A stretch of 64,000 nt of DNA, taken from assembly GCA_000092065.1 (NCBI GenBank), contig CP000597.1. One strand, written 5' to 3'. Each line of letters starts with the position of its first letter. Position 1 is the first letter of the stretch. Shown here piece by piece: positions 39,627 through 64,000 of the stretch. The position numbers and the translations under genes were made by a program. Source of the DNA: Ostreococcus lucimarinus (Eukaryota). The notes under the pieces were generated by a model, which saw nothing but the letters and a program-made list of their open reading frames with translations, ran no database searches and was not told the origin of the DNA.

Positions 39627-40039
39627 TCGCGTCGGCGCATGCACTTCGCACCGACGCTTTCCCCGCACTCATCACTTTCGCGATGAAATCGCGCAATCAT
39701 CGCGTAATCATCGTCGTCAGTTTGTTGTAATCGTATTTGTATGATTGTTTCTCCACGTTCGCCTCGTCCGACGTGCGATTCCACCGCCCAGATCGCGCGC
39801 GCGCGCGATGGTGTAGGGTTAGAGTATCACACCACACGGACCAAAACGATCCTGACCGTTTGTCTTCTCACCATCGCCGCACCTTATACCGCCGCGCGTC
39901 GCGGCGAGCGCGGCGAGCGCGATCGAAAGGCGACGAGAACGCGTGCGACTACGTACGCACTCTCGTTCCGCGCGATCGCGAACCGTTTGGTCGACCGCGT
40001 GCACGTGCAGCGGCGGCATCGTTCGCGCGCGCGCGAGCC

Positions 40040-43000
40040 ATGGCGTTCAAACCGCTGCTCGCGACGCGGGATCGTCGAGCGCTTCTGGAGGAGTGGCGAC
40101 GGAAAAATGCGAACAAGGCGGGGCGTAAGAACGCGCTCGAACGCTCGGAGGTGAATAAAAGCGAGTCGGTGACGACGCAAACGACGGCTGGGACGACGCC
40201 GGTGAAAACCGTCGTCGGCGGCGCGACGCTCGGCGTAAAGTACGACTACGCCTCAATGCGAGGGAAGGAAAATGACGGAACGAGAGGTGAAATGAACGTA
40301 GAAAATGATGGTTCGTTCGTCACACCGCGGTCGAAGACGAGCGAGGCGCGCGTGGGTACGATGGGGAATGAACGGCGAGGCGCGGGGGAACAAGCGTCGA
40401 CGAGCGAGACGACGACGCCGAGCACGGGGAAAAGGTCAACGTTCTTCTCGTTATCGGGCGCGAGAAAGTCGACTAATGGTGTTGGTGGGGCGACGACGAT
40501 CGATTTAATGCCTTCGCCTGCGGTGCGTGCGCGATTGAAGGCGGTTGAAACTGAAAAGGAGGCGCTGCAAGCGCTGGCTACCAAGTTGCGCGAATCCTCC
40601 GAAGCCGCCCTCGAAGAGGCGTACTCAAAGCGGAGTGAAGCAGAAGAACGAGCGAAATCCATGTCAGAGAGACTGCAAAAAATGGAATCCGACAGGGCGT
40701 CGCTTCAAGCCGATATGGCGGCTGTTCGCGCGCAGGCGCAGGCTCTCGCAAAGGCAAAGGAGGAGCACATGCGCGCGTTGCGCAAAGAGAAGCGTGCCGC
40801 GGAGGCGGCGGCCAAAGCGCTCGAGCAGGCGAAAGAGGACGCGAACACTGCGGTGCAAGAGCGTGAATTTACAATTGCGAATCAGGCGGCGATTTTAGAA
40901 GAGCTCGACGACGAACTCGATCGTGCGGAGCGAAGTCGAGAAAAGGCTGAACTAGTCGCCGCCGAAAAGGACAAACTTCTCAAGCAACTGCGGGCGCAGC
41001 TCGATGAGGCTAAGCACGAGCTCGAGATGGCGACCAAGCATCAGACGTCAAAGCAAAATGCTGATACGGGAGGTGTGCGCGCTAGTCAGGAAAAGTTACT
41101 GCAGCTCGCCGCGGCTCGTCAAGAGGCAGAGGCGGACGCGGCGCGCGCGCGCCAAGAGGCCAAGAGTCTCGCAGTTGAAGTCGAGGCGCGCCGTGCAGAG
41201 TTGGAGACTGTGCAATGCGAACTCGAAAAGTGCTTGCAAGAGGAACGTATGGAGCGACAGCGGGCTGAAGAGGCGTACTCGGAGGTACAGCTTGAGCGAA
41301 ATACCTTAGAAGTACTCGTTGAGAAGCGCACTTTGGAGAAGATTGCTCTGGAGGAGCGACTCGAGGCGGTTACTGAAGAGGCTGAATTTCTTCGATCAGA
41401 AATGAAAGAACGCGATGAAATGCTTCGTGAAGGTAATCAGCTTGTGGAAGCAAAGGAGACCGAGCTTGAACAAGCCGTCACGTATGTGCTACACATTCAG
41501 GAACAGCTCGAGCAAATGCAAGCATCCGGGGGCGGTGACAACACCGAGGTCGCCGAGCGAATCAAAGAGCTGCAAATAAAGCACGAGGCTTTGCGCATGG
41601 AAAAGCAGAAAATTCTCGAGGATATGCACACTGAAATTGCTGAGCGCGATGCACTGTTGTATGCGAGTAAGAAGTCGCTGGAATCGAAAGAGGCTGAGCT
41701 CGAGGCACTGCGAGCTGAGTACAGCACCAGGACGACGGAACTGGGACCACTTGAAATTGAGCTTCAAGGTTTGCGGGAAAGAGTCTATTCTTACAAATTC
41801 GAGTTGGAGGAGAAAAATGCACAACTGGCTGCGAATAATGCGCTCGTGAAACAGATGATGTCGGCCGAAAAGCGACAAACTGCGAATGTTAGACGACTCG
41901 AGTTTGGTCTCGCAGAGCGCGATGAAAAGTTGCGCAACTTCAACGAGGAGCTGAACAACTTGAAAATGGAGTCTGATCAACGAGACGAAAACATTTCCGA
42001 GCGATTGGACAGCTTAAAGCAGCGCGAAGGCGTGCTTGAGGCACTTCAACGTGCCACCGAGTTGCGATTAGAGGAGCTTCGTGAGGAACACGCCGAAGCG
42101 GTGTCAAAGCTTACTGCCGAAAAGGCACGTGCCGAGACGCGGGCCTCACAACTCGAGCAACAGATCGATCAGCTGAAGAATGAGTCTAACTCTCAAAACT
42201 TCGACGAGGTCGAGTCGCTCAAGGCTGAGCTTTCCGAGACGTGCGCCAAATTGGAAGAGTCGCAGCTCGAAATCGGACGGCTTTGTACATCTATTGCAGA
42301 ACTGGAGCACAGCGCGGAAGAATCGATGAGCACTCTGAAGGCGCAACTCGAACTGACAAAGGGTGAACTCGAAAACGCCATCTTGGAGGCGGATGAAGCG
42401 CGCGCGACGACGGAGCAAGTCGAAGCAGACAGTCTCAGCATGATGAAGGACATGCAGACGGTCAGCGAAGACTTGGAGAAGAAAATCAACGAATACAAGC
42501 AATTGGTTCGCACGCGTGATTCGGAGCTCAGAAATCTTAAGAAGGAAGTGCACCTTAAATCATTTGAGTCCGAGCGCTTGAGAGAGTCCCAAAGCACTGG
42601 TCTTAAAGCTATCGAAAAGCTCGAGACTGCGCTCAAGGCAAAGGCTGCCGAGTGCGAGCGAGCGAAGAGCGACATTGTTAAGGCGCAGAAGCAGCTCACG
42701 ATGCTCCAGCAAGAGCTCGGTTCGAGTACGAAGACGCAAAATGAATTGCAGGGAGCGTTGAACGAAATGCACCTCAGACTTTCAAAGTCTGAAGAGCAGC
42801 GAGATATGCTCGCCGGTTCGTTGGCGAGGCAAGAGGAGTATCAGGAGAGCGTCAACAAAGCTCGCGAAGAGATGCATCAAATCGCGTTGGAAGACGCTGC
42901 TGATGAAATCAGAAGCGTGCGACGAAAGTCGACTGTTCTGGCGACGGCTTTACAGCAACATGTGAGAATCAACGAGCTCGACGCAGAAGTTGCTCTGTTG

Positions 43001-43393
43001 GTTGATGAATTTGCCGAGTCGATGCAAGCGACGCCGCAGGCGGCGTTGCCGACGCCGACAATGACACTCAACGAGCCGAAGACCAAGCCAAAGACGTACC
43101 GCAAGACGCCAGCGAAACCAAAGGGAACAAATTCGAGCTTCATCACTCCTGTACGTCCTGACGCAAGCCTGAAGGAAAATATTCACAAGCTCAACGAACG
43201 CGCCGATCAAATTTCCTTCAACGATTTGGCGACGAAGCAGCCCGGTTCGGAGGCAAATGTGTACGCCACGCCAGGTGATGAAAACCAAGGCGCGCGTAAA
43301 ATCGCAGGAATAGAGGGGAAGAAAGCTTTGGCGCCTCATTCCGCGACGAAGACGCGCCCCGCGCTCGGCGCCGTCTCTCAAAATTTAGCGTAG
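40040..43393 (+). CDS. Long coiled-coil protein (about 1,117 aa), function unknown
   Basis: Near-continuous heptad E/K/L/Q-rich sequence typical of myosin-tail/SMC-like coiled coils; basic S/T-P-rich C-terminus. Start at ATG 40040 (track start 39737 is TTG through a low-complexity leader). Confidence 0.55.
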   Translation: MAFKPLLATRDRRALLEEWRRKNANKAGRKNALERSEVNKSESVTTQTTAGTTPVKTVVGGATLGVKYDYASMRGKENDGTRGEMNVENDGSFVTPRSKTSEARVGTMGNERRGAGEQASTSETTTPSTGKRSTFFSLSGARKSTNGVGGATTIDLMPSPAVRARLKAVETEKEALQALATKLRESSEAALEEAYSKRSEAEERAKSMSERLQKMESDRASLQADMAAVRAQAQALAKAKEEHMRALRKEKRAAEAAAKALEQAKEDANTAVQEREFTIANQAAILEELDDELDRAERSREKAELVAAEKDKLLKQLRAQLDEAKHELEMATKHQTSKQNADTGGVRASQEKLLQLAAARQEAEADAARARQEAKSLAVEVEARRAELETVQCELEKCLQEERMERQRAEEAYSEVQLERNTLEVLVEKRTLEKIALEERLEAVTEEAEFLRSEMKERDEMLREGNQLVEAKETELEQAVTYVLHIQEQLEQMQASGGGDNTEVAERIKELQIKHEALRMEKQKILEDMHTEIAERDALLYASKKSLESKEAELEALRAEYSTRTTELGPLEIELQGLRERVYSYKFELEEKNAQLAANNALVKQMMSAEKRQTANVRRLEFGLAERDEKLRNFNEELNNLKMESDQRDENISERLDSLKQREGVLEALQRATELRLEELREEHAEAVSKLTAEKARAETRASQLEQQIDQLKNESNSQNFDEVESLKAELSETCAKLEESQLEIGRLCTSIAELEHSAEESMSTLKAQLELTKGELENAILEADEARATTEQVEADSLSMMKDMQTVSEDLEKKINEYKQLVRTRDSELRNLKKEVHLKSFESERLRESQSTGLKAIEKLETALKAKAAECERAKSDIVKAQKQLTMLQQELGSSTKTQNELQGALNEMHLRLSKSEEQRDMLAGSLARQEEYQESVNKAREEMHQIALEDAADEIRSVRRKSTVLATALQQHVRINELDAEVALLVDEFAESMQATPQAALPTPTMTLNEPKTKPKTYRKTPAKPKGTNSSFITPVRPDASLKENIHKLNERADQISFNDLATKQPGSEANVYATPGDENQGARKIAGIEGKKALAPHSATKTRPALGAVSQNLA

Positions 43394-56344: not shown

Positions 56345-57060
56345 CGCGCGACGTCACGAATCCCCGTGCGTCGCTCGAACGACGCGCTCTTCGCGCGTCG
56401 GCGTCGACGAATCGACGACGGCGCGAATCGAATCGCGCGCGGTGCGCGTGAATGAATCGACGCGAATCGACGCGAATCGCGCGCGCGCGCCGTCGCGACG
56501 CCGCGCTTATGTCGCGCGCTCGACCGACCGCCGCGCGCTCGCGTCGCGCGTCGTCGCGCGATTCGCGCGTCGTCGCGCGCGCGCGAGTCGCGCCGTCGCG
56601 CGCGCGGTCGCGCGGTGTGGTCTCCTTTTACCATTTCTACGCCTTACTATACGATATATACAACGCATCATGCGTACACGATCCACCATCACGACATGGA
56701 TCACGCGTGTCATCGTACACGTCACACTGTGTGTCCACACCCGTATGTCCGAATTCTCCACCGACGACGCGTCGCGTCGAATCCATCGCTCGGTCGGCAC
56801 GGGGCGACGCGCGCGACAATCGCGATGCGAGCGATGCGGTGCGTTCGAGCGCGATTCGCGCCGATTCGCGACGCGAGCGATTCCGCGCGGCGTCCACGGG
56901 AACGCCGACCGTCGCGCGACGACCGCGCGTCGATCGCGATGACGCGGTCGCGGTGCCGACCGCGCGATGGATTCGAGGCGACGCCGACGGTCGGCGACGA
57001 CGCGACGACGTCGACGCGTCGCGCCGAGGACGCGATTCGAAGAGTCGACGTCTCGCGCGT

Positions 57061-58065
57061 ATGCCGTATGCGCGCGCGGACGGCGCGACGCGCGCACGCG
57101 GAGACGCGCGACGGAGGATCCGTCGCGCGCGCGAGGGGCGCGCGGACGCGCGCGAGACGACGAGGGGCGGCGCGGAGAAGAAGAATAAAACGCCGACGAG
57201 CGACGCGGGTCGAGGACGAAAGAGACCGAACGGGGAAGGGGGAAGAGTGAGACTCGCGCGCGATGACGAAGAGATCGGACGAGGCGATGACGGTGAGACT
57301 GACGAGCGACGCGAACGCGAACGGGCGCGCAGGGCGACGAGGACGGCGACGGCGAACGCGGCGGCGACGGCGCGCGGACGCGCGCGACGAACGACGAAGA
57401 CGCGCGCGGGCGGCGCGTCGGTGGGAACGGAGAAACCGGTGCCGATCGTGATCATAGATAACAAGAGCGATGCGTTCGCCACGGTGGTGGAGGTGTCGTT
57501 CGGAAACTACCTCGGCGAGCTGCTCGACACCGTCGCGGCGCTGAAAAACCTCGGCTTGGACATCAACAAGGGGGACGTGCAAATGTCCGGGGATTCGACG
57601 AAGACGTCGAAATTTTACGTGATCGATCGCGAAAACGGTGAGAAGGTGACCAAGAGCGAGCGCTTGGAGGAGATTCGTCAGACAATCTTGACCAACATGA
57701 TGGCGTTTCACCCGGAAGCCGCCGAGTACATTCAAGCCAAGGCGCCGACGCGCGCGGGGGGCGAGGGGGTCTTGGGTAAGGTGAAGAAGAAGGTGCAAAC
57801 CGGCATCAAGTGCGCCCCGGAGCGGTACCACTCCAAGCTCGAGATCGAAACCACCGATCGACCGGGGTTGTTGGTGGACGTCGTGCGCACGCTCAAGGAT
57901 TTGAGCCTGTGCGTCGTGAGCGCCGAGGTGGACACCATCGGAGATAAGGCGAGCGACATCATCTACGTCACCCATAAAGGTGGGCCGTTGTCGCCGCCGA
58001 TGGAACAACTCGTGGTGAACTCTCTGTCTTACTACTTGTCTCTGACCGAGGAGGAAAGTTACTAA
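57061..58065 (+). CDS. ACT-domain repeat protein (two ACT domains), ACR11/12-like, probably plastid-targeted
   Basis: Two ACT-like beta-alpha-beta-beta-alpha-beta units: VPIVIIDNKSDAFATVVEVSFGNYLGELLDTVAALKNLGLDI and KLEIETTDRPGLLVDVVRTLKDLSLCVVSAEVDT. The track ORF starts at 56452 but its first about 200 codons are R/A/D low complexity; start placed at ATG 57061. Confidence 0.55.
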   Translation: MPYARADGATRARGDARRRIRRAREGRADARETTRGGAEKKNKTPTSDAGRGRKRPNGEGGRVRLARDDEEIGRGDDGETDERRERERARRATRTATANAAATARGRARRTTKTRAGGASVGTEKPVPIVIIDNKSDAFATVVEVSFGNYLGELLDTVAALKNLGLDINKGDVQMSGDSTKTSKFYVIDRENGEKVTKSERLEEIRQTILTNMMAFHPEAAEYIQAKAPTRAGGEGVLGKVKKKVQTGIKCAPERYHSKLEIETTDRPGLLVDVVRTLKDLSLCVVSAEVDTIGDKASDIIYVTHKGGPLSPPMEQLVVNSLSYYLSLTEEESY

Positions 58066-58266: not shown

Positions 58267-60222
58267 TCAGACGCACGGACAAATGTTTGTGCAGTCGGCG
58301 TGCGCCGCGGCGTACGTGCACGACGCCGGGAGATGGCCGTGAGACGGGCTCAAGAAGCACCGTCCAGAAAGCGCGGAAACGCCACCGCAGTGCTGTGTCT
58401 CGTCGTTGAGCAAGATTTCGTCGCACGCCACGATGTTTCCAGAGCCGTCTGCGCTCGTCGTCCTGGAGATGACGTCGCGGAAATCATTCATAGTGCTCGG
58501 CCACACGTGTTCGGCGCACGTCTTCTGAACCTCGGCGCATCGGGATTCGCACGTTTGCAACGATCCAAACTTGGTTTGAGTCCACTCGATACCGTTCGCC
58601 GTGAGGCGTTGATCGGCCGGGATCGCCTCGACCGGGCCAGATTCTTCCATGGCGCCCATGCCGGCGGCGGCAAACCGGTTAGGATCGACGTTCGCCTTCG
58701 GCGGTTGCGGCGGTTGTTCCACTAGCACCGGCTGTTCCATCAACACCGGTTGCTCCACTTGCGCCGGTTGCTCCACTTGCTCGCCGTAATGATCGTTGTC
58801 GTATTCGCGATCTTGGTATTCGTCCGTCGCCTGCACCACCGGCGCCGTGGACTCCAACGTCGGCTGCGTTTCCACGGGCGGCATCACCGGTGCCGTGGAC
58901 GACGCTTCTACCGGGTTCATCGGAACTTCGGGTAAACCGCCTTGTTCGCACCCGGTGACACCGTAATGGTCGCACACGCACTGAGTGCACGTTTCCCATC
59001 CGTCTTCGTAGCTGATGGATGGATCTTGGTGATCCGTCTTGCAAAATCGACAAGCGCTGTCAGCGTAGCAACCTTGGCCGCCCTCGGTCAGGCATCGCTT
59101 ATCGTACATCAAGTACAAAATCTTGCTATCGCACGTGTTATAGTTGCACGTGAGACCTAAAGCGGCGGAAGCAGTGGACGACGCCGTCAAGAAGCTCGAC
59201 GCCAGTCCTTCGTCTGTCACCTCCGCCACCTGCGGCTCGCTCGAGAATTGTTGCGCAGGCGCCGCTTGCGGTATGTCTGAGAATTCATCATACGCTTGCG
59301 CGGCTTGCACCGGCGCCGCTTGCACCACGGTTGAGGATTGCTCGAGCGTCGGCGTGGCTTGCACCGGCGCCGTCGTTGGCGTGGCTTGCACCGGCGCCGT
59401 CGTCGGCGTGGATTCCAAACCTTCCGGCGTCGGCATCCCCGCGCATCCAGTGCTGAAACCATAATGCTCGCACACGCACGGGTCACAAAGACCCATAGAG
59501 TCCGGAATATCGTTCATACCGCCTTGTTTTTCCATCCCGAGCACGCGGCAGAACCGGCACCCGCTGTCGCCCACGCAACCGATGCCCCCGTTCGCGCACG
59601 CCGGATCGACGTGCTGGAACTTATCTGGACACATGGCCGCGTCGCACGTCGCGCCTTCGGCGATCAACGCCGCGGCACCGTCGACGCCTGAACCCGCGAT
59701 GGGCGTCGAGACGATGCCTGAGCCGACGGCCGCCGCGCCGCTCGCCGCCGCGCCGCTCGCCGCCGCGCCGCTCGAGAAACCGATCGACGAAGACTTAAAA
59801 TTCTCCGCCTCATCCTTGAAAAACTGCGGCACGTCGCCGAGCGCACCGCTGTCCACGTCGTGCGTTCTCGACACCCTCCTCGATCGCTCGGATTCGCTCG
59901 CCGTGTTCCACGCTTCGCCCTCCAACAGCGGATTCGACGCCCCGAGCTCCGTCAGCGCCCCGTCGCGTCTCGCCCCGCCCAACCGCGCCACCGTCTCCTT
60001 CGCTCGGTACCGCCGCGTCAGATCATCGCGAGTTTTCTCATCCAAATCCAACACCGTTCCCTCGTACGCCGCTCCCTCGACCCGTCGCACGCTTCGCTTC
60101 CCCAGCGCCGCGTTCGCGTTCGCGTTCGCGTTCGCCGTCGTCTCCCGCCCCCCCATCGCCGCCATCATCGCCATCATCCCCAGCGACGCCATCGCCGCGC
60201 TCGCCATCGTCCGTCGGTTCAT
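58267..60222 (-). CDS. Cys-rich modular secreted/surface protein: signal-anchor, two paralogous about 70-aa Cys-rich modules separated by mucin-like T/P/A/Q linkers, and a distinct C-terminal Cys-rich domain
   Basis: N-terminus MNRRTMASAAMASLGMMAMMAAMGG (hydrophobic). Module 1 CDAAMCPDKFQHVDPACANGGIGCVGDSGCRFCRV..CDPCVCEHYGFSTGC and module 2 CNYNTCDSKILYLMYDKRCLTEGGQGCYADSACRFCKT..CTQCVCDHYGVTGC share the Cys spacing. Linkers TPTTAPVQATPTTAPVQATPTLEQ and EQPVLMEQPVLVEQP. Start at internal ATG 60222. Confidence 0.55.
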   Translation of the reverse strand: MNRRTMASAAMASLGMMAMMAAMGGRETTANANANANAALGKRSVRRVEGAAYEGTVLDLDEKTRDDLTRRYRAKETVARLGGARRDGALTELGASNPLLEGEAWNTASESERSRRVSRTHDVDSGALGDVPQFFKDEAENFKSSSIGFSSGAAASGAAASGAAAVGSGIVSTPIAGSGVDGAAALIAEGATCDAAMCPDKFQHVDPACANGGIGCVGDSGCRFCRVLGMEKQGGMNDIPDSMGLCDPCVCEHYGFSTGCAGMPTPEGLESTPTTAPVQATPTTAPVQATPTLEQSSTVVQAAPVQAAQAYDEFSDIPQAAPAQQFSSEPQVAEVTDEGLASSFLTASSTASAALGLTCNYNTCDSKILYLMYDKRCLTEGGQGCYADSACRFCKTDHQDPSISYEDGWETCTQCVCDHYGVTGCEQGGLPEVPMNPVEASSTAPVMPPVETQPTLESTAPVVQATDEYQDREYDNDHYGEQVEQPAQVEQPVLMEQPVLVEQPPQPPKANVDPNRFAAAGMGAMEESGPVEAIPADQRLTANGIEWTQTKFGSLQTCESRCAEVQKTCAEHVWPSTMNDFRDVISRTTSADGSGNIVACDEILLNDETQHCGGVSALSGRCFLSPSHGHLPASCTYAAAHADCTNICPCV

Positions 60223-61252
60223 CCGCAGTCCCTCCCCCGCGCCCTCGCTCGCGCCTCGCGCGTCTCGCGCGTCGTCGTCGTCGCTCTCGCGTCGTCGTCG
60301 CGCGTCCCGATCGTCGTCGCGTCGGCCCAGCAGCGACGCCGATTCCGACGCCCGCGCCGCATCGCGCGATCGCGCGTCGTCCGGTGCGCGCATGCTCGGC
60401 GCGCGCGTCGTCGTCGTCCGCGCCGTCGCGCGTCGTCGAGCGTCGCGCGATGCGAGACGGTACCACAACTTTAGTGTTGGCGAAACCACGAAATCCCGTC
60501 CCGCGCGCGTCACCGAACCCGATCGGCGTCGCCCGCCGTGTCTCTGGTATACGGGTACACGCACCGTTCTCATATGAACGCCGAGGTACTATAATACCTC
60601 TAATAACGCTCTATGAAAGGTGCGAGCGGGACGCCCGACCGACCCCTCGTGCGTGTCCGAATGTCCGATCGTCCCCGAATGTCCGAATATCCGAATAATC
60701 CCATCCGTATGCGCGAGCAGTCCGACGCGAAGACCGACCCAAGCGCGGCATCCATCCATCGATGCCCCACTCTTCGACGGCGATTCGCGACGCCGGTCGA
60801 CCCGTGGACGCCGCAGACGCCGACGGACGCCGCCGAGCGCGAAGAGCGGACGGTGTGCGACGCGAACACAACGCGACGACGCGACGACGCGAATCCGGAC
60901 GCGCGACGACGAGGACGCGCTCGAGCGCGCGCGAACGCTGACTGGACGCCGCGTCGGCGCGGCGCGCGACGAAGCGAACGCGCGATGGGGCTCGAGACGG
61001 CGCTGCTGAGGAACCACGAGCGGTTGGGGAAGATCGCGCTCACGGGAGGGTTCGCGTTCGGGTTCGCGTACACGACGAAGACGGGGACGAGTCCGCTCGC
61101 GGGATGGGGATGGACGCCGCGGACGCGCGAGGCGAGCGCGCGCGCGGCGACGGCGAACGATTGATGATTGTTGTTGTTGTAAAAAGAATGGGTTTGTACG
61201 CACGACGATGGCGCGCGGTGATCGACGCGCGCGGTTTGACTAGGGCTAAGAT

Positions 61253-61293
61253 GAACGAACGAACGAACGAACGAACGAATGAATGAATGAACG
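61253..61293. repeat. (GAAC)n/(GAAT)n microsatellite in the spacer downstream of the transporter gene
   Basis: Direct observation. Confidence 0.85.
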
Positions 61294-61362: not shown

Positions 61363-64000
61363 TCACGTCGACGCCGCGGTCGCGATCGCACCGCCGAGCT
61401 CGACGTCGGCGGTGGGTTCGATATCGGAACCGCGACGACGGTGGCGCGCGGCACGGGACCGAGCGGCGCGGTCGACGACGGCGGTCCACGCCGCGCGGAA
61501 CCCCACCGTGGTGGCGACGACGACGACGACGAAGGCGACGACGATGACGACGTACGGGATCCATATCGCGTCGTCGCCGACGCCTAAGACGACGATACTG
61601 ACGATCAAGAGCGTGATCTGCATGGGGAAACCAAATTTGATAAAGTCGGCGAACACGTAGCCGCCCGGGCCGTACACCATGAGGTTGGTTTGGTATCCGA
61701 AGGGCGACATGAAGGACGCCGAGGCGGCGAGCATGAGTAAGAAGGCCATCTTTTCGAGCGCGATGTTTTCAGATTCCGCGGCGCTGGCGGCGATGGGAAG
61801 CATCAAAGCCGCGGCGGCGTTGTTCGTCACGATGTTGGAGATCAAGAACGTGGCGAGGTAGACGGCGACGAGCAAGCCGATTTCACCCGTGTTCGTGACG
61901 CGACCCAACGCGACGAGTTTCTTCGCCACGGCTTCGGCGACGCCACTGTTTTGCATGGCGCGCGAAATTCCAAAAGCACCGGCGATGGTGACTATGACGT
62001 CCCATTTTATGGCGTTTCGAGCCTCTTGCTGCGTCAGAGTGCCAGAGGCGATCATCACAGCCGCCGCGAGCACCGCGGCGGTGAAGAGCTCCATGACGCC
62101 GGCGGTGTACAAACTAATCATTGCCAGCGCGCACAAGAGCGAGGGGATGAGTAATCGCAAACGAGGGGGCGTAGAATCGTCCAAAACACTGATCAGAGCG
62201 AACGCGCCCTGCGCCCGGGCGCTTTGTTTGAAATCTTCACCGGCGTCGAGTAAAAGCACGTCGCCGGGGTGCAAGACGACGTCGCCAATTCTTGAGTGCA
62301 CGCGCGCGCCCTCGCGATGGACGGCGATGACGACTGCGTTGAATCGCGTGCGAAATTTGATGTCTCGAATAGACTTACCGACCAAATCTCCAGTTTTCGC
62401 GACCACGGCTTGAATCAATCGACGGTCGTGACTGGAGATTTCGAGCTTGTCCACTTGGTCGCTCGAGTACGGCGCCAGCCCCGGAACCCGACGAAGACTG
62501 GCGATGGCGTTGGCGCCACCGGCGTACCACATCACGTCATTTGCTTCTAAAGGCTCACTCGGATCGATCACAGTGGTTCTGTCCGCGGGAGATTCAACCA
62601 TGGCGACGACAGCCGCTGCGCCGACGCTCACGATGGATCGCGTGCGCTCGATTGATACCAAAAACAAACCCGGCAACGACCGCAAGCCGCTCTCGACCGC
62701 CGTCTTGCCTATGAAATTCTTCGCCGTAGCTTCAATGCGCACGGCGATGAGGAACTCTTTCCCTGTGTTCATCGTTCCCGATCCATGACCGATGATTTCT
62801 AAATCCTCGCGAGTCTTCGCCAAGCGCTCGTCCTCCTCAACGACGACGTCTTCAGATTCCTCCAAGAGCTTGATCAAAGGTGAACTATCCTGCGCCTGTA
62901 ATACGAGAGTATCACCCACTTGAAAAATCAGCGCGTTTAGCTTACCCGGTGGCGCGCGACCGCCACGTTGCACAGCGATGATGGCGCCGCCGTACGTGAC
63001 GCGCAAATCCGCCTCTCCTGGAGTCTTTCCCACGAGCGATGACGTCGGTTTCACACTGCATCGAACGACGGATTGCCCGCGCCTTTTCACGGCTTCAATC
63101 CCAGTCACGGGTTCGAGTAAAGTTTTGATCACCGTCGTGATCTCCTCTTTCGTCGTGGTGTTTTGCAACACTTGCAAGCGCCAAATAGAAACCGATCGCG
63201 AACCCACCGCCGAAGCTTCGCAATGTAACAACTGCACACGCAAGCGATTCAACGCCTGCGAGATGTCGTGCAACAACCCGGGTCGATCGTTCGCACTAAT
63301 TCCGAGCACCATACGTCCAACGTGTTCGGGGTTATTTTGATCGGCATCGGGATCGACATCCACGGTCACCAACGGCGGCCCCAGGGCGGTTTCGCTCTCC
63401 TTGGCGCTAATCATCGCGTCACCGTCGCCGCGAGCTTCACCGAGAGCATTCTTCAGATTTTCGCCGTACATCCGCAACGCCTGAGCTTTGATCGCTCGTG
63501 CGGTGCCGTCGTCAGAATCACTGGCGCCACCAGAAGTATACGCGTTGCCGTCGGAGGATGAATACCCCGGGCTCAGCGGGAGCGCGCTCCCAGCGTCGCT
63601 CGAGTCTTGGTTCGATCCGTGCGATCTGCGAGGTCGAGCCTTTTGTCGACGCTTCCGCAAGGCATAAATTCCACCTTCCGATTCTTTGTAAATGGCGTGC
63701 GTGCGCGCGAGCTTTTGTAAATCCGCAATGCTGCTCGCCGAGTGCATGGCGACGACGTCCTTCTCGTCACCTCCGTCAAACGACGTCTCTCTCGCGCCTT
63801 CGTCTTCGTCTTCGTCGTACTCTTGCGTGATCGCCATCAACCCATACTCCGCGCACACCTTCCCGAGCGACTCGATCATCCCGGTAAAATACAAAATATC
63901 GCCCTGGTTCAGGATGAACTCTGGTCCGATGGCGCGCAACAACGCTTGGTTTCTGCGCACGCTCACCAGGTACAATCCCGGCAAACCTCGCAATCCGCTC
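61363..64000 (-). CDS. SLC13/DASS-superfamily anion transporter with two internal TrkA-C domains, SAC1/SLT-like Na+/sulfate transporter; 5'-truncated by the window end
   Basis: Two RCK_C/TrkA-C-like regulatory segments (..GDTLVLQAQDSSPLIKLLE.. and ..GDVLLLDAGEDFKQSARAQG..) sit between N- and C-terminal polytopic hydrophobic halves. This architecture is characteristic of Chlamydomonas SAC1/SLT1-3 and the bacterial CitT/YbiR-like DASS group. The ORF runs off the window at 63993 without an upstream stop. Confidence 0.6.
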   Translation of the reverse strand, partial: SGLRGLPGLYLVSVRRNQALLRAIGPEFILNQGDILYFTGMIESLGKVCAEYGLMAITQEYDEDEDEGARETSFDGGDEKDVVAMHSASSIADLQKLARTHAIYKESEGGIYALRKRRQKARPRRSHGSNQDSSDAGSALPLSPGYSSSDGNAYTSGGASDSDDGTARAIKAQALRMYGENLKNALGEARGDGDAMISAKESETALGPPLVTVDVDPDADQNNPEHVGRMVLGISANDRPGLLHDISQALNRLRVQLLHCEASAVGSRSVSIWRLQVLQNTTTKEEITTVIKTLLEPVTGIEAVKRRGQSVVRCSVKPTSSLVGKTPGEADLRVTYGGAIIAVQRGGRAPPGKLNALIFQVGDTLVLQAQDSSPLIKLLEESEDVVVEEDERLAKTREDLEIIGHGSGTMNTGKEFLIAVRIEATAKNFIGKTAVESGLRSLPGLFLVSIERTRSIVSVGAAAVVAMVESPADRTTVIDPSEPLEANDVMWYAGGANAIASLRRVPGLAPYSSDQVDKLEISSHDRRLIQAVVAKTGDLVGKSIRDIKFRTRFNAVVIAVHREGARVHSRIGDVVLHPGDVLLLDAGEDFKQSARAQGAFALISVLDDSTPPRLRLLIPSLLCALAMISLYTAGVMELFTAAVLAAAVMIASGTLTQQEARNAIKWDVIVTIAGAFGISRAMQNSGVAEAVAKKLVALGRVTNTGEIGLLVAVYLATFLISNIVTNNAAAALMLPIAASAAESENIALEKMAFLLMLAASASFMSPFGYQTNLMVYGPGGYVFADFIKFGFPMQITLLIVSIVVLGVGDDAIWIPYVVIVVAFVVVVVATTVGFRAAWTAVVDRAARSRAARHRRRGSDIEPTADVELGGAIATAAST

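Follow-up and report, generated by a model that had tools for sequence, protein, structure and literature searches.

The 64,000-nucleotide stretch of Ostreococcus lucimarinus CCE9901 DNA analysed here (the window; all coordinates are window positions) carries on its minus strand a single uninterrupted open reading frame (ORF) at 58267-60573, which encodes a modular Cys-rich protein. The gene is already annotated as 'predicted protein' (ABP00508.1 / XP_001422191.1 / UniProt A4S9L4), and in our literature search we found no paper naming these accessions. ORFs next to it match the proteins ABP00492.1 and ABP00387.1 of this strain letter for letter. An earlier note on this DNA started the frame at 60222, which gives a protein of 651 amino acids (aa) with 30 Cys, and proposed a modular, Cys-rich, secreted or surface protein with mucin-like T/P linkers. 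A modular, Cys-rich, extracytoplasmic architecture with low-complexity linkers rich in P, T, A and Q is supported by our analysis: all 30 Cys are located in three blocks of 10, and the linkers and the juxtamembrane region are free of Cys. Two further results are central to our interpretation, the probable relationship of the last domain to the C-terminal domain of the glycosyltransferase GnT-V (MGAT5) and a conserved acidic dileucine motif in a predicted N-terminal tail. The gene and its product are composed as follows, from the N-terminus to the C-terminus:

58267-60393, minus strand: coding sequence that we prefer (708 aa and a stop codon); the frame stays open to 60573, metagenome calls of 708 aa exist, and the motif in the upstream tail is kept in homologues
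60208-60393, minus strand: predicted cytosolic N-terminal tail, 62 aa, rich in R, D, E and A; K+R bias across the family, strain variants stay in frame
60328-60345, minus strand: acidic dileucine motif ESASLL, which fits [DE]xxxL[LI]; codons read directly, motif in all nine lineages with an available N-terminus
60148-60207, minus strand: single hydrophobic segment MASAAMASLGMMAMMAAMGG, the top Kyte-Doolittle window of the protein; a signal anchor, or the h-region of a signal peptide if the start lies downstream
59653-60147, minus strand: juxtamembrane region of 165 aa without Cys; contains an (AAASG)n repeat and, in the family alignment, the short conserved motifs A[AS]LGK, AxYEG and GxLGDVPxF[FM]K
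59434-59649, minus strand: Cys module 1, 72 aa, 10 Cys; match of the module hidden Markov model (HMM) in the six-frame translation with i-E 3.5e-22
59152-59433, minus strand: linker 1, rich in P, T, A, S and Q, no Cys; holds the TPTTAPVQA tandem repeat, 15-27% identity to orthologues
58939-59151, minus strand: Cys module 2, 71 aa, 10 Cys; invariant GGxGC...CRFC...CxxCxC...GC
58699-58938, minus strand: linker 2, rich in P, Q and E, no Cys; holds the EQPVL-type repeat of 18 base pairs (bp)
58594-58698, minus strand: conserved Cys-free segment KANVDPNRFAAAGMGAMEESGPVEAIPADQRLTAN ahead of the last domain; 57-74% identity to two-module orthologues, 17% to the one-module homologue P0010
58270-58593, minus strand: C-terminal domain, 108 aa, 10 Cys, ending in CPCV; resembles the C-terminal accessory domain of GnT-V/MGAT5

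The C-terminal domain is the most conserved part of the protein (62-73% identity to orthologues, 40% to P0010). An exhaustive HMM search of 1.84 billion cluster representatives with its profile gave only 26 matches at E<=0.001, 17 of which, at E<=1e-10, are members of the same family or their fragments. Beyond the family, five metagenomic proteins (P0091 and P0094-P0097) were found with library-wide E-values of 1e-9 to 1e-4. They consist of two to four tandem repeats of approximately 95 residues with the pattern W..G..GqsC..vC...C.e.WP...F...C...CwW...C...RFCPC, and several of them carry N-terminal signal peptides. In P0097 there is, in addition, a second kind of large Cys-rich repeat (...IFSPxxRADWxTF...PHWIVDVTRPQNGCGGCT...), which is present twice. 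Comparison of the picoalgal C-domain profile with these repeats (hhalign) yielded a probability of 98.4% with E=8e-15 over 98 columns. The tandem-repeat proteins in turn match positions 451-557 of the 557 positions of Pfam PF15024 (glycosyltransferase family 18, GT18) with E=7e-7 to 6e-4, one of them above the gathering score, and their profile finds MGAT5/GnT-V chains in the PDB (5ZIB, 5ZIC, 6YJQ and others) with E=1.7e-5. When C-domains and repeats were merged in one profile, the MGAT5 chains were matched with E=1.1e-4, and all eight core Cys and the terminal CPC were aligned.

Positions W3, C14, C18, C25, P31, C56, C78, C91, C104, P105 and C106 are invariant over 22 domains, including that of the window. 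The window C-domain shows the whole framework, namely the eight core Cys, the W...C-x3-C-x6-C...WP pattern and the FCPC at the end, and the same Cys columns align to MGAT5. Because of this transitive homology and the shared Cys framework, we assign the domain to the type of the GnT-V/MGAT5 C-terminal accessory domain, to which it is probably homologous via the intermediates. Thus, of the claim that the protein ends in a third, distinct domain with 10 Cys that fits no known family, the first half is correct, but the domain is not unassignable. In GnT-V the C-terminal domain comprises G628-L741, is one of two accessory domains around the core with the GT-B glycosyltransferase fold, holds five of the eight disulfides of the enzyme and has no assigned function (PMC6107550; PMC7014118). 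An early impression of a C-type-lectin-like fold for the picoalgal C-domain was dropped, and nothing supported it.

A GT-B catalytic domain was not detected in the protein with Pfam or NCBIfam, and even the intermediates match PF15024 only at positions 451-557 of 557. This argues that the protein is not a GT18 enzyme, and judging from its domain content it is not an enzyme at all. It could instead be a non-catalytic relative or partner of glycosyltransferases that resides in the Golgi, a 'pseudo-glycosyltransferase' scaffold in the biosynthesis of glycans or of scale or wall polymers. The type II topology is standard for Golgi glycosyltransferases, GnT-V included (PMC6107550), and a Golgi enzyme is the sole context in which the structure of the C-domain was solved. 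We consider such a role unlikely, however, since Pfam finds no GT-A or GT-B region (0 matches) and the remainder of the protein is mostly low-complexity linker or poorly conserved juxtamembrane sequence. Further, acidic dileucine signals usually serve post-Golgi sorting and not Golgi retention (PMC8905187), and long stalks with a distal domain suit a binding protein at the surface or in a lumen better.

The two Cys modules are paralogous, as had been claimed on the basis of their approximately 10 Cys with conserved spacing: BLASTP aligns them with E=9e-12 and 39% identity, with all 10 Cys in register. Over 23 diverse module copies the invariant signature is C-x4-C...D.xC..GGxGC.....CRFC...C..C.C......GC, and no His is found at the invariant positions. 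An AlphaFold2 model of module 2 (mean pLDDT 85.1, pTM 0.70) contains two short helices and a few short strands. The module is thus confidently predicted to be a real, autonomously folding unit. The full protein has no match in Pfam (0 families at E<=10) or NCBIfam. For the module, no match at E<=10 was obtained when the model was compared by Foldseek with all PDB chains and BFVD, although such fold searches are insensitive to small, irregular, disulfide-rich domains. Its profile gave only noise against PDB sequences and nothing in Pfam. Neither by profile nor by fold did it match EGF, laminin-EGF, TNFR, TSP1, furin-like/GF-receptor, PSI or similar domains in Pfam, PDB and BFVD, in agreement with the earlier view that the modules cannot be placed in EGF, TNFR or thrombospondin. 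Sequence relatives of the module were sought by word-indexed search (the exhaustive HMM search used the C-domain profile), and this added two proteins, the short ORFs P0070 and P0071. Based on these results, the module is a candidate new domain family without detectable relatives, and possibly a new fold.

P0070 is a stand-alone ORF of 116-119 aa with a single 10-Cys module, without an obvious signal peptide or C-domain, and is located on GC-rich marine contigs (L006 1148-1507, L007 1786-2145 and L008 430-780). Possibly it belongs to a larger gene as one of its exons, or else it encodes a small protein of its own.

Cys clusters of the CxxC and CxxCxC type could in principle chelate metal, and in an intracellular zinc-binding protein of the cytosol or nucleus the hydrophobic stretch would not lie in a membrane. 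The CxxC-type spacing is indeed present, and the hydrophobic segment of O. lucimarinus is weak. Against this, the C-domain is homologous to secreted repeats and to a domain that is both luminal and disulfide-bonded (PMC6107550), the module lacks an invariant His, each domain has an even count of 10 Cys, and the hydrophobic segments of the homologues are strong. We regard a zinc-binding protein as very improbable.

The N-terminus of the protein needs revision. The A4S9L4 model comprises 646 aa, begins with MASAAMASLG at 60207 and matches the sequence exactly, whereas in marine metagenome gene calls the same protein has 708 aa and begins with MRAPDD at 60393. Since the tail and its motif upstream of 60222 are conserved in homologues, the true start codon is most likely 60393, 57 codons upstream of 60222. 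The reference start at 60207 is probably wrong: the reference model starts at the hydrophobic segment, and therefore the 62-residue tail with the conserved ExxxLL is omitted. In every homologue with an available N-terminus, [DE]xxxLL is found in the first approximately 20 residues of the likely start:

ESASLL: window
ESIALL: P0002
ENARLL: P0005, P0006, P0008 and P0009
EGAPLL: P0010, P0082, P0085 and P0086
ERIALL: P0087
ERVTLL: P0088
EDSPLL: P0089
ERAALL: P0007, in an in-frame extension upstream of the called start

The tails of the homologues are Leu-poor and hardly alignable outside this motif, and in composition-preserving shuffles the chance that a tail holds it is 1-5% for each of the nine lineages (P=0.01-0.05). 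The consensus [D/E]xxxL[L/I] is the canonical signal for the sigma subunits of adaptor (AP) complexes, and in plants it directs vacuolar sorting (AP-1, AP-4) and endocytic sorting (AP-2) (PMC8905187). We infer that the ESASLL tail may bind such adaptors.

The tail is followed by the single hydrophobic segment MASAAMASLGMMAMMAAMGG, with a Kyte-Doolittle 19-residue mean of 1.44. The hydrophobic N-terminus that the earlier note had described as resembling a signal anchor is thus present, if weak, but translation probably begins upstream of 60222 and the tail is longer. In homologues the equivalent segments reach 1.9-2.65, lie 25-105 residues from the N-terminus and are preceded by a charged stretch. 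Across the family, three to five K+R are found in the 15 aa before the segment versus one to three in the 15 aa after it. Type II topology is implied by the longer N-terminus and its conserved dileucine signal for sorting, and together these features suggest a type II signal anchor with a cytosolic tail and not a plain secreted protein.

The alternative is a soluble glycoprotein that is secreted or part of the cell coat, starts at 60222 or 60207, loses a signal peptide by cleavage and is released or deposited in the extracellular matrix. In line with this, the reference annotation starts at 60207, and MNRRT followed by a moderately hydrophobic stretch of 20 aa and by ANANANANA with its AxA sites resembles the n-, h- and c-regions of a signal peptide. 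The hydrophobicity of 1.44 is also nearer to that of a signal peptide than to that of a transmembrane (TM) helix, and the C-domain has its distant relatives among secreted proteins with tandem repeats. Such a protein is nevertheless rather doubtful, since the in-frame upstream tail with ExxxLL is conserved at the protein level in all lineages and strain variants keep the frame despite a one-codon indel. Moreover, the hydrophobic segments of the homologues, at 1.9-2.65, lie well inside, 40-100 residues from the N-terminus, and the conserved A[AS]LG is too distant from the hydrophobic core for signal peptidase.

A[AS]LG follows the hydrophobic core only after 15-20 residues and was therefore rejected as a candidate signal-peptidase site. 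All family members have a short [AS][AS](L/F)G motif 10-25 residues past the hydrophobic segment (AALGK, ASLGK, SALGS, FSALGG), and more xLGx motifs follow further along the juxtamembrane region. Possibly, the [AS][AS](L/F)G motif is a shedding or processing site. Just past the hydrophobic segment, a (CGCGTT)4.5 array at 60109-60135 encodes the ANANANANA run, which reads ARANANANA in one strain variant. The (AAASG)n repeat of the juxtamembrane region is a 15-bp array at 59729-59774, in which a 5-aa indel between strains is located.

The repeats TPTTAPVQA and EQPVL, which had been reported to separate the two modules, are both real. The first is a 27-bp tandem array in linker 1 (59347-59411; 2.4 copies, 94% matches; TRF). 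The second, (V/M)EQP(V/A)(L/Q), is an 18-bp array of 3.7 copies at 58711-58777, but it is located between module 2 and the C-terminal domain and not between the modules. Linker 1 contains P11, T13, S11 and A18 in 93 residues and linker 2 P15, Q10 and E11 in 80 residues. Both fit the profile of mucin-like or hydroxyproline-rich sequences, as they are P/T/S/A-rich, Cys-free, repetitive and poorly conserved. They are probably extended stalks, O-glycosylated or hydroxyproline-glycosylated.

A word-indexed search of 5.8 billion proteins revealed only ten relatives of 666-769 aa, all without Pfam domains and unnamed. Together with the 26 matches of the exhaustive search among 1.84 billion representatives, this agrees with the suggestion of a lineage-specific family, which appears to be narrow and specific to Ostreococcus and close picoalgal relatives. 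The other lineages are presumably Mamiellophyceae, judging from microsynteny and marine origin. The family members differ in the number of modules:

two modules: window protein, P0002-P0009, P0083, P0087 and P0088
one module: P0010, P0082, P0084-P0086 and P0092
minimal form: P0089, 266 aa, with tail motif, TM segment, one module, AP-rich linker and C-domain

Identity to orthologues is 45-61% in the modules and 9-34% in the linkers. Among nine strain-level variants, 15 of 709 columns differ, none of them in the linkers or module 2, and the N-terminal tail shows only substitutions and one in-frame indel of one codon. Within the 64-kb window, an HMM search of the six-frame translation for paralogues found no second copy of the module or the C-domain. 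The Cys-rich gene is flanked by two genes:

56452-58065, plus strand: ACT-domain gene
61363-63993, minus strand: CitMHS/TrkA_C (Na/sulfate-symporter-like) transporter gene

In the window, the transporter gene, the Cys-rich gene and the ACT gene follow one another in this order, and so they do in one strain-level contig and in two more distant lineages, which have 55% and 57% GC (loci L001, L003/L004 and L005); a fourth contig (L009) retains the ACT neighbour. This conserved gene order indicates that the homologues are orthologues of a single-copy core gene.

These data bear on the idea of the earlier note that the protein is a candidate for interaction with viruses or predators. In such a role it would be a fast-evolving surface glycoprotein that meets grazers or prasinoviruses, the latter perhaps as their receptor. 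Surface-exposed, lineage-specific glycoproteins are the type of molecule that viruses exploit, and the linkers and the tail diverge fast between species. However, the low polymorphism among strains, the single copy in the window and the microsynteny conserved across lineages argue against an arms-race locus, and the C-domain is 62-73% conserved. In addition, no viral homologue was found in limited searches (viral contigs with a narrow C-domain alignment and the BFVD fold search), and the accessions are not named in the literature we found. We therefore find no support for the idea and consider it quite improbable.

Other features of the window include the short direct repeats upstream of the gene, which had been described as three copies at 60690-60730. 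Instead, CGAATGTCCGA is present at 60658-60694 in two exact copies and one with a mismatch, in the following array:

60654-60696, no strand assigned: degenerate period-8 microsatellite (TGTCCGAA)n, a weak array according to TRF

Allowing one mismatch, CGAATGTCCGA occurs four times in the window, while dinucleotide-preserving shuffles contain it 3.3 times on average and 45 of 100 shuffles reach four. With this chance-level count, a regulatory element was rejected. A (GAAC)10 microsatellite is located at 61253-61293 in the intergenic region upstream of the gene. Elsewhere in the window, the AT skew is 0.23-0.28 at 40-44 kb, within a long ORF (39737-43393), and the GC content amounts to 0.69 at 44-46 kb and to 0.68 in two other intervals, 52-54 kb and 56-58 kb.

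Based on these observations, we propose, with a probability of roughly 0.55, that the gene encodes an adaptor-sorted, single-pass type II membrane glycoprotein of the secretory/endocytic system, which presents a distal binding domain on glycosylated stalks. The tail would be cytosolic and read by clathrin-adaptor complexes, which would shuttle the protein between the trans-Golgi network, the plasma membrane and the endosome or vacuole. The ectodomain would be luminal or extracellular and disulfide-bonded, as suggested by the homology of the C-domain to secreted repeats and to a GnT-V domain that is luminal and holds five disulfides. The spacers rich in P, T, A and Q would serve as O-glycosylated stalks, and the membrane-distal, most conserved C-domain may be the working tip which binds a ligand, either a glycan or a protein. 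A receptor or binding function, taken alone, is much less certain.

In this proposal, sequence comparison and database searches directly show how the protein is built and conserved, that it carries the consensus of the sorting motif, to what its last domain is related and that the module is autonomous. Several points weigh against it. The localisation, topology, glycosylation and start codon are predictions from the sequence. The Kyte-Doolittle mean of the hydrophobic segment in O. lucimarinus is below the usual threshold of 1.6, and in the reference annotation, which begins at this segment, the segment has the place of a signal peptide. That the linkers are O-glycosylated is deduced from their composition, and no N-x-S/T sequon is found anywhere in the 651-residue protein (58270-60222, minus strand). 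The link to GnT-V is transitive and has no direct significance: the window C-domain has 0 Pfam matches at E<=10, two orthologues match PF15024 over the right region at only E ~1, and the family profile against a single human MGAT5 segment gives 1% probability (hhalign), which is not significant. Against PDB sequences, the profile from the family alone gives only noise. An AlphaFold2 model of the C-domain from an alignment of six sequences has a pLDDT of 37.6 and is unusable. Finally, since the GnT-V C-domain itself has no known function, the term binding domain is a guess.

A more far-reaching version can be put forward only tentatively, and we think it improbable. In this version, the 10-Cys module is a new fold restricted to Mamiellophyceae-like picoalgae, and the protein is an endocytic or sorting receptor with a ligand-binding tip resembling the GnT-V C-domain, which could be a docking site of prasinoviruses too. 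If true, the receptor would open a first way to the function of this domain, which has no explanation in human GnT-V either.

The findings are modest and not very surprising to a specialist, and the function is proposed from the sequence. They may be of use for several reasons. They present the GnT-V C-terminal accessory domain as a mobile extracellular module that probably also exists outside glycosyltransferases, in secreted repeats and in a picoalgal membrane protein. These non-enzymatic contexts suggest an autonomous role for it, probably in binding. The picoalgal and the repeat proteins could be simpler systems for studying this domain, a structurally solved part of a cancer-relevant enzyme that has no function assigned to it. 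Last, very few surface or endomembrane proteins of Ostreococcus are characterised. A type II glycoprotein that is conserved, single-copy and equipped with a sorting signal would serve as a marker, or as an entry point, for work on trafficking and on the cell surface of these smallest free-living eukaryotes.

In comparison with known systems, the closest likeness is to the C-terminal domain of GnT-V/MGAT5 (human G628-L741; 5ZIB/6YJQ). It shares with the picoalgal C-domain the order of eight core Cys, an N-terminal W/G...C-x3-C-x6-C block and a terminal (F/V)CPC. Both form the very C-terminal end of a luminal protein of type II and have about five disulfides (PMC6107550), topology and disulfides being predicted in the picoalgal case. 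In contrast to GnT-V, the picoalgal protein has neither the GT-B catalytic domain nor the GnT-V N-domain. Its C-domain contains two extra Cys elsewhere (HC...DC) and lacks the CKDCL tail, and the similarity is significant only via the intermediate tandem-repeat sequences. The secreted tandem-repeat proteins (P0091, P0094-P0097) belong to the same domain family as the window C-domain, but they have signal peptides and arrays with Pro-rich linkers and are without the 10-Cys module, the TM anchor and the dileucine tail.

DC-SIGN and the asialoglycoprotein receptor are type II endocytic receptors of the C-type lectin group, in which a tail with a dileucine-type signal is followed by a signal anchor, a neck and a disulfide-rich C-terminal binding domain. 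The picoalgal protein can be likened to them in its predicted layout, but the analogy is functional only: it has no C-type lectin domain (no Pfam match), and the folds are different. Finally, VIT1 and NRAMP3/4 are plant membrane proteins sorted by an N-terminal [D/E]xxxL[L/I] (PMC8905187). In these proteins, as in the picoalgal protein, the same consensus is located near the N-terminus of a cytosolic tail, which in the latter is predicted. They are, however, polytopic transporters, whereas the picoalgal protein is predicted to span the membrane once and to expose a large ectodomain.

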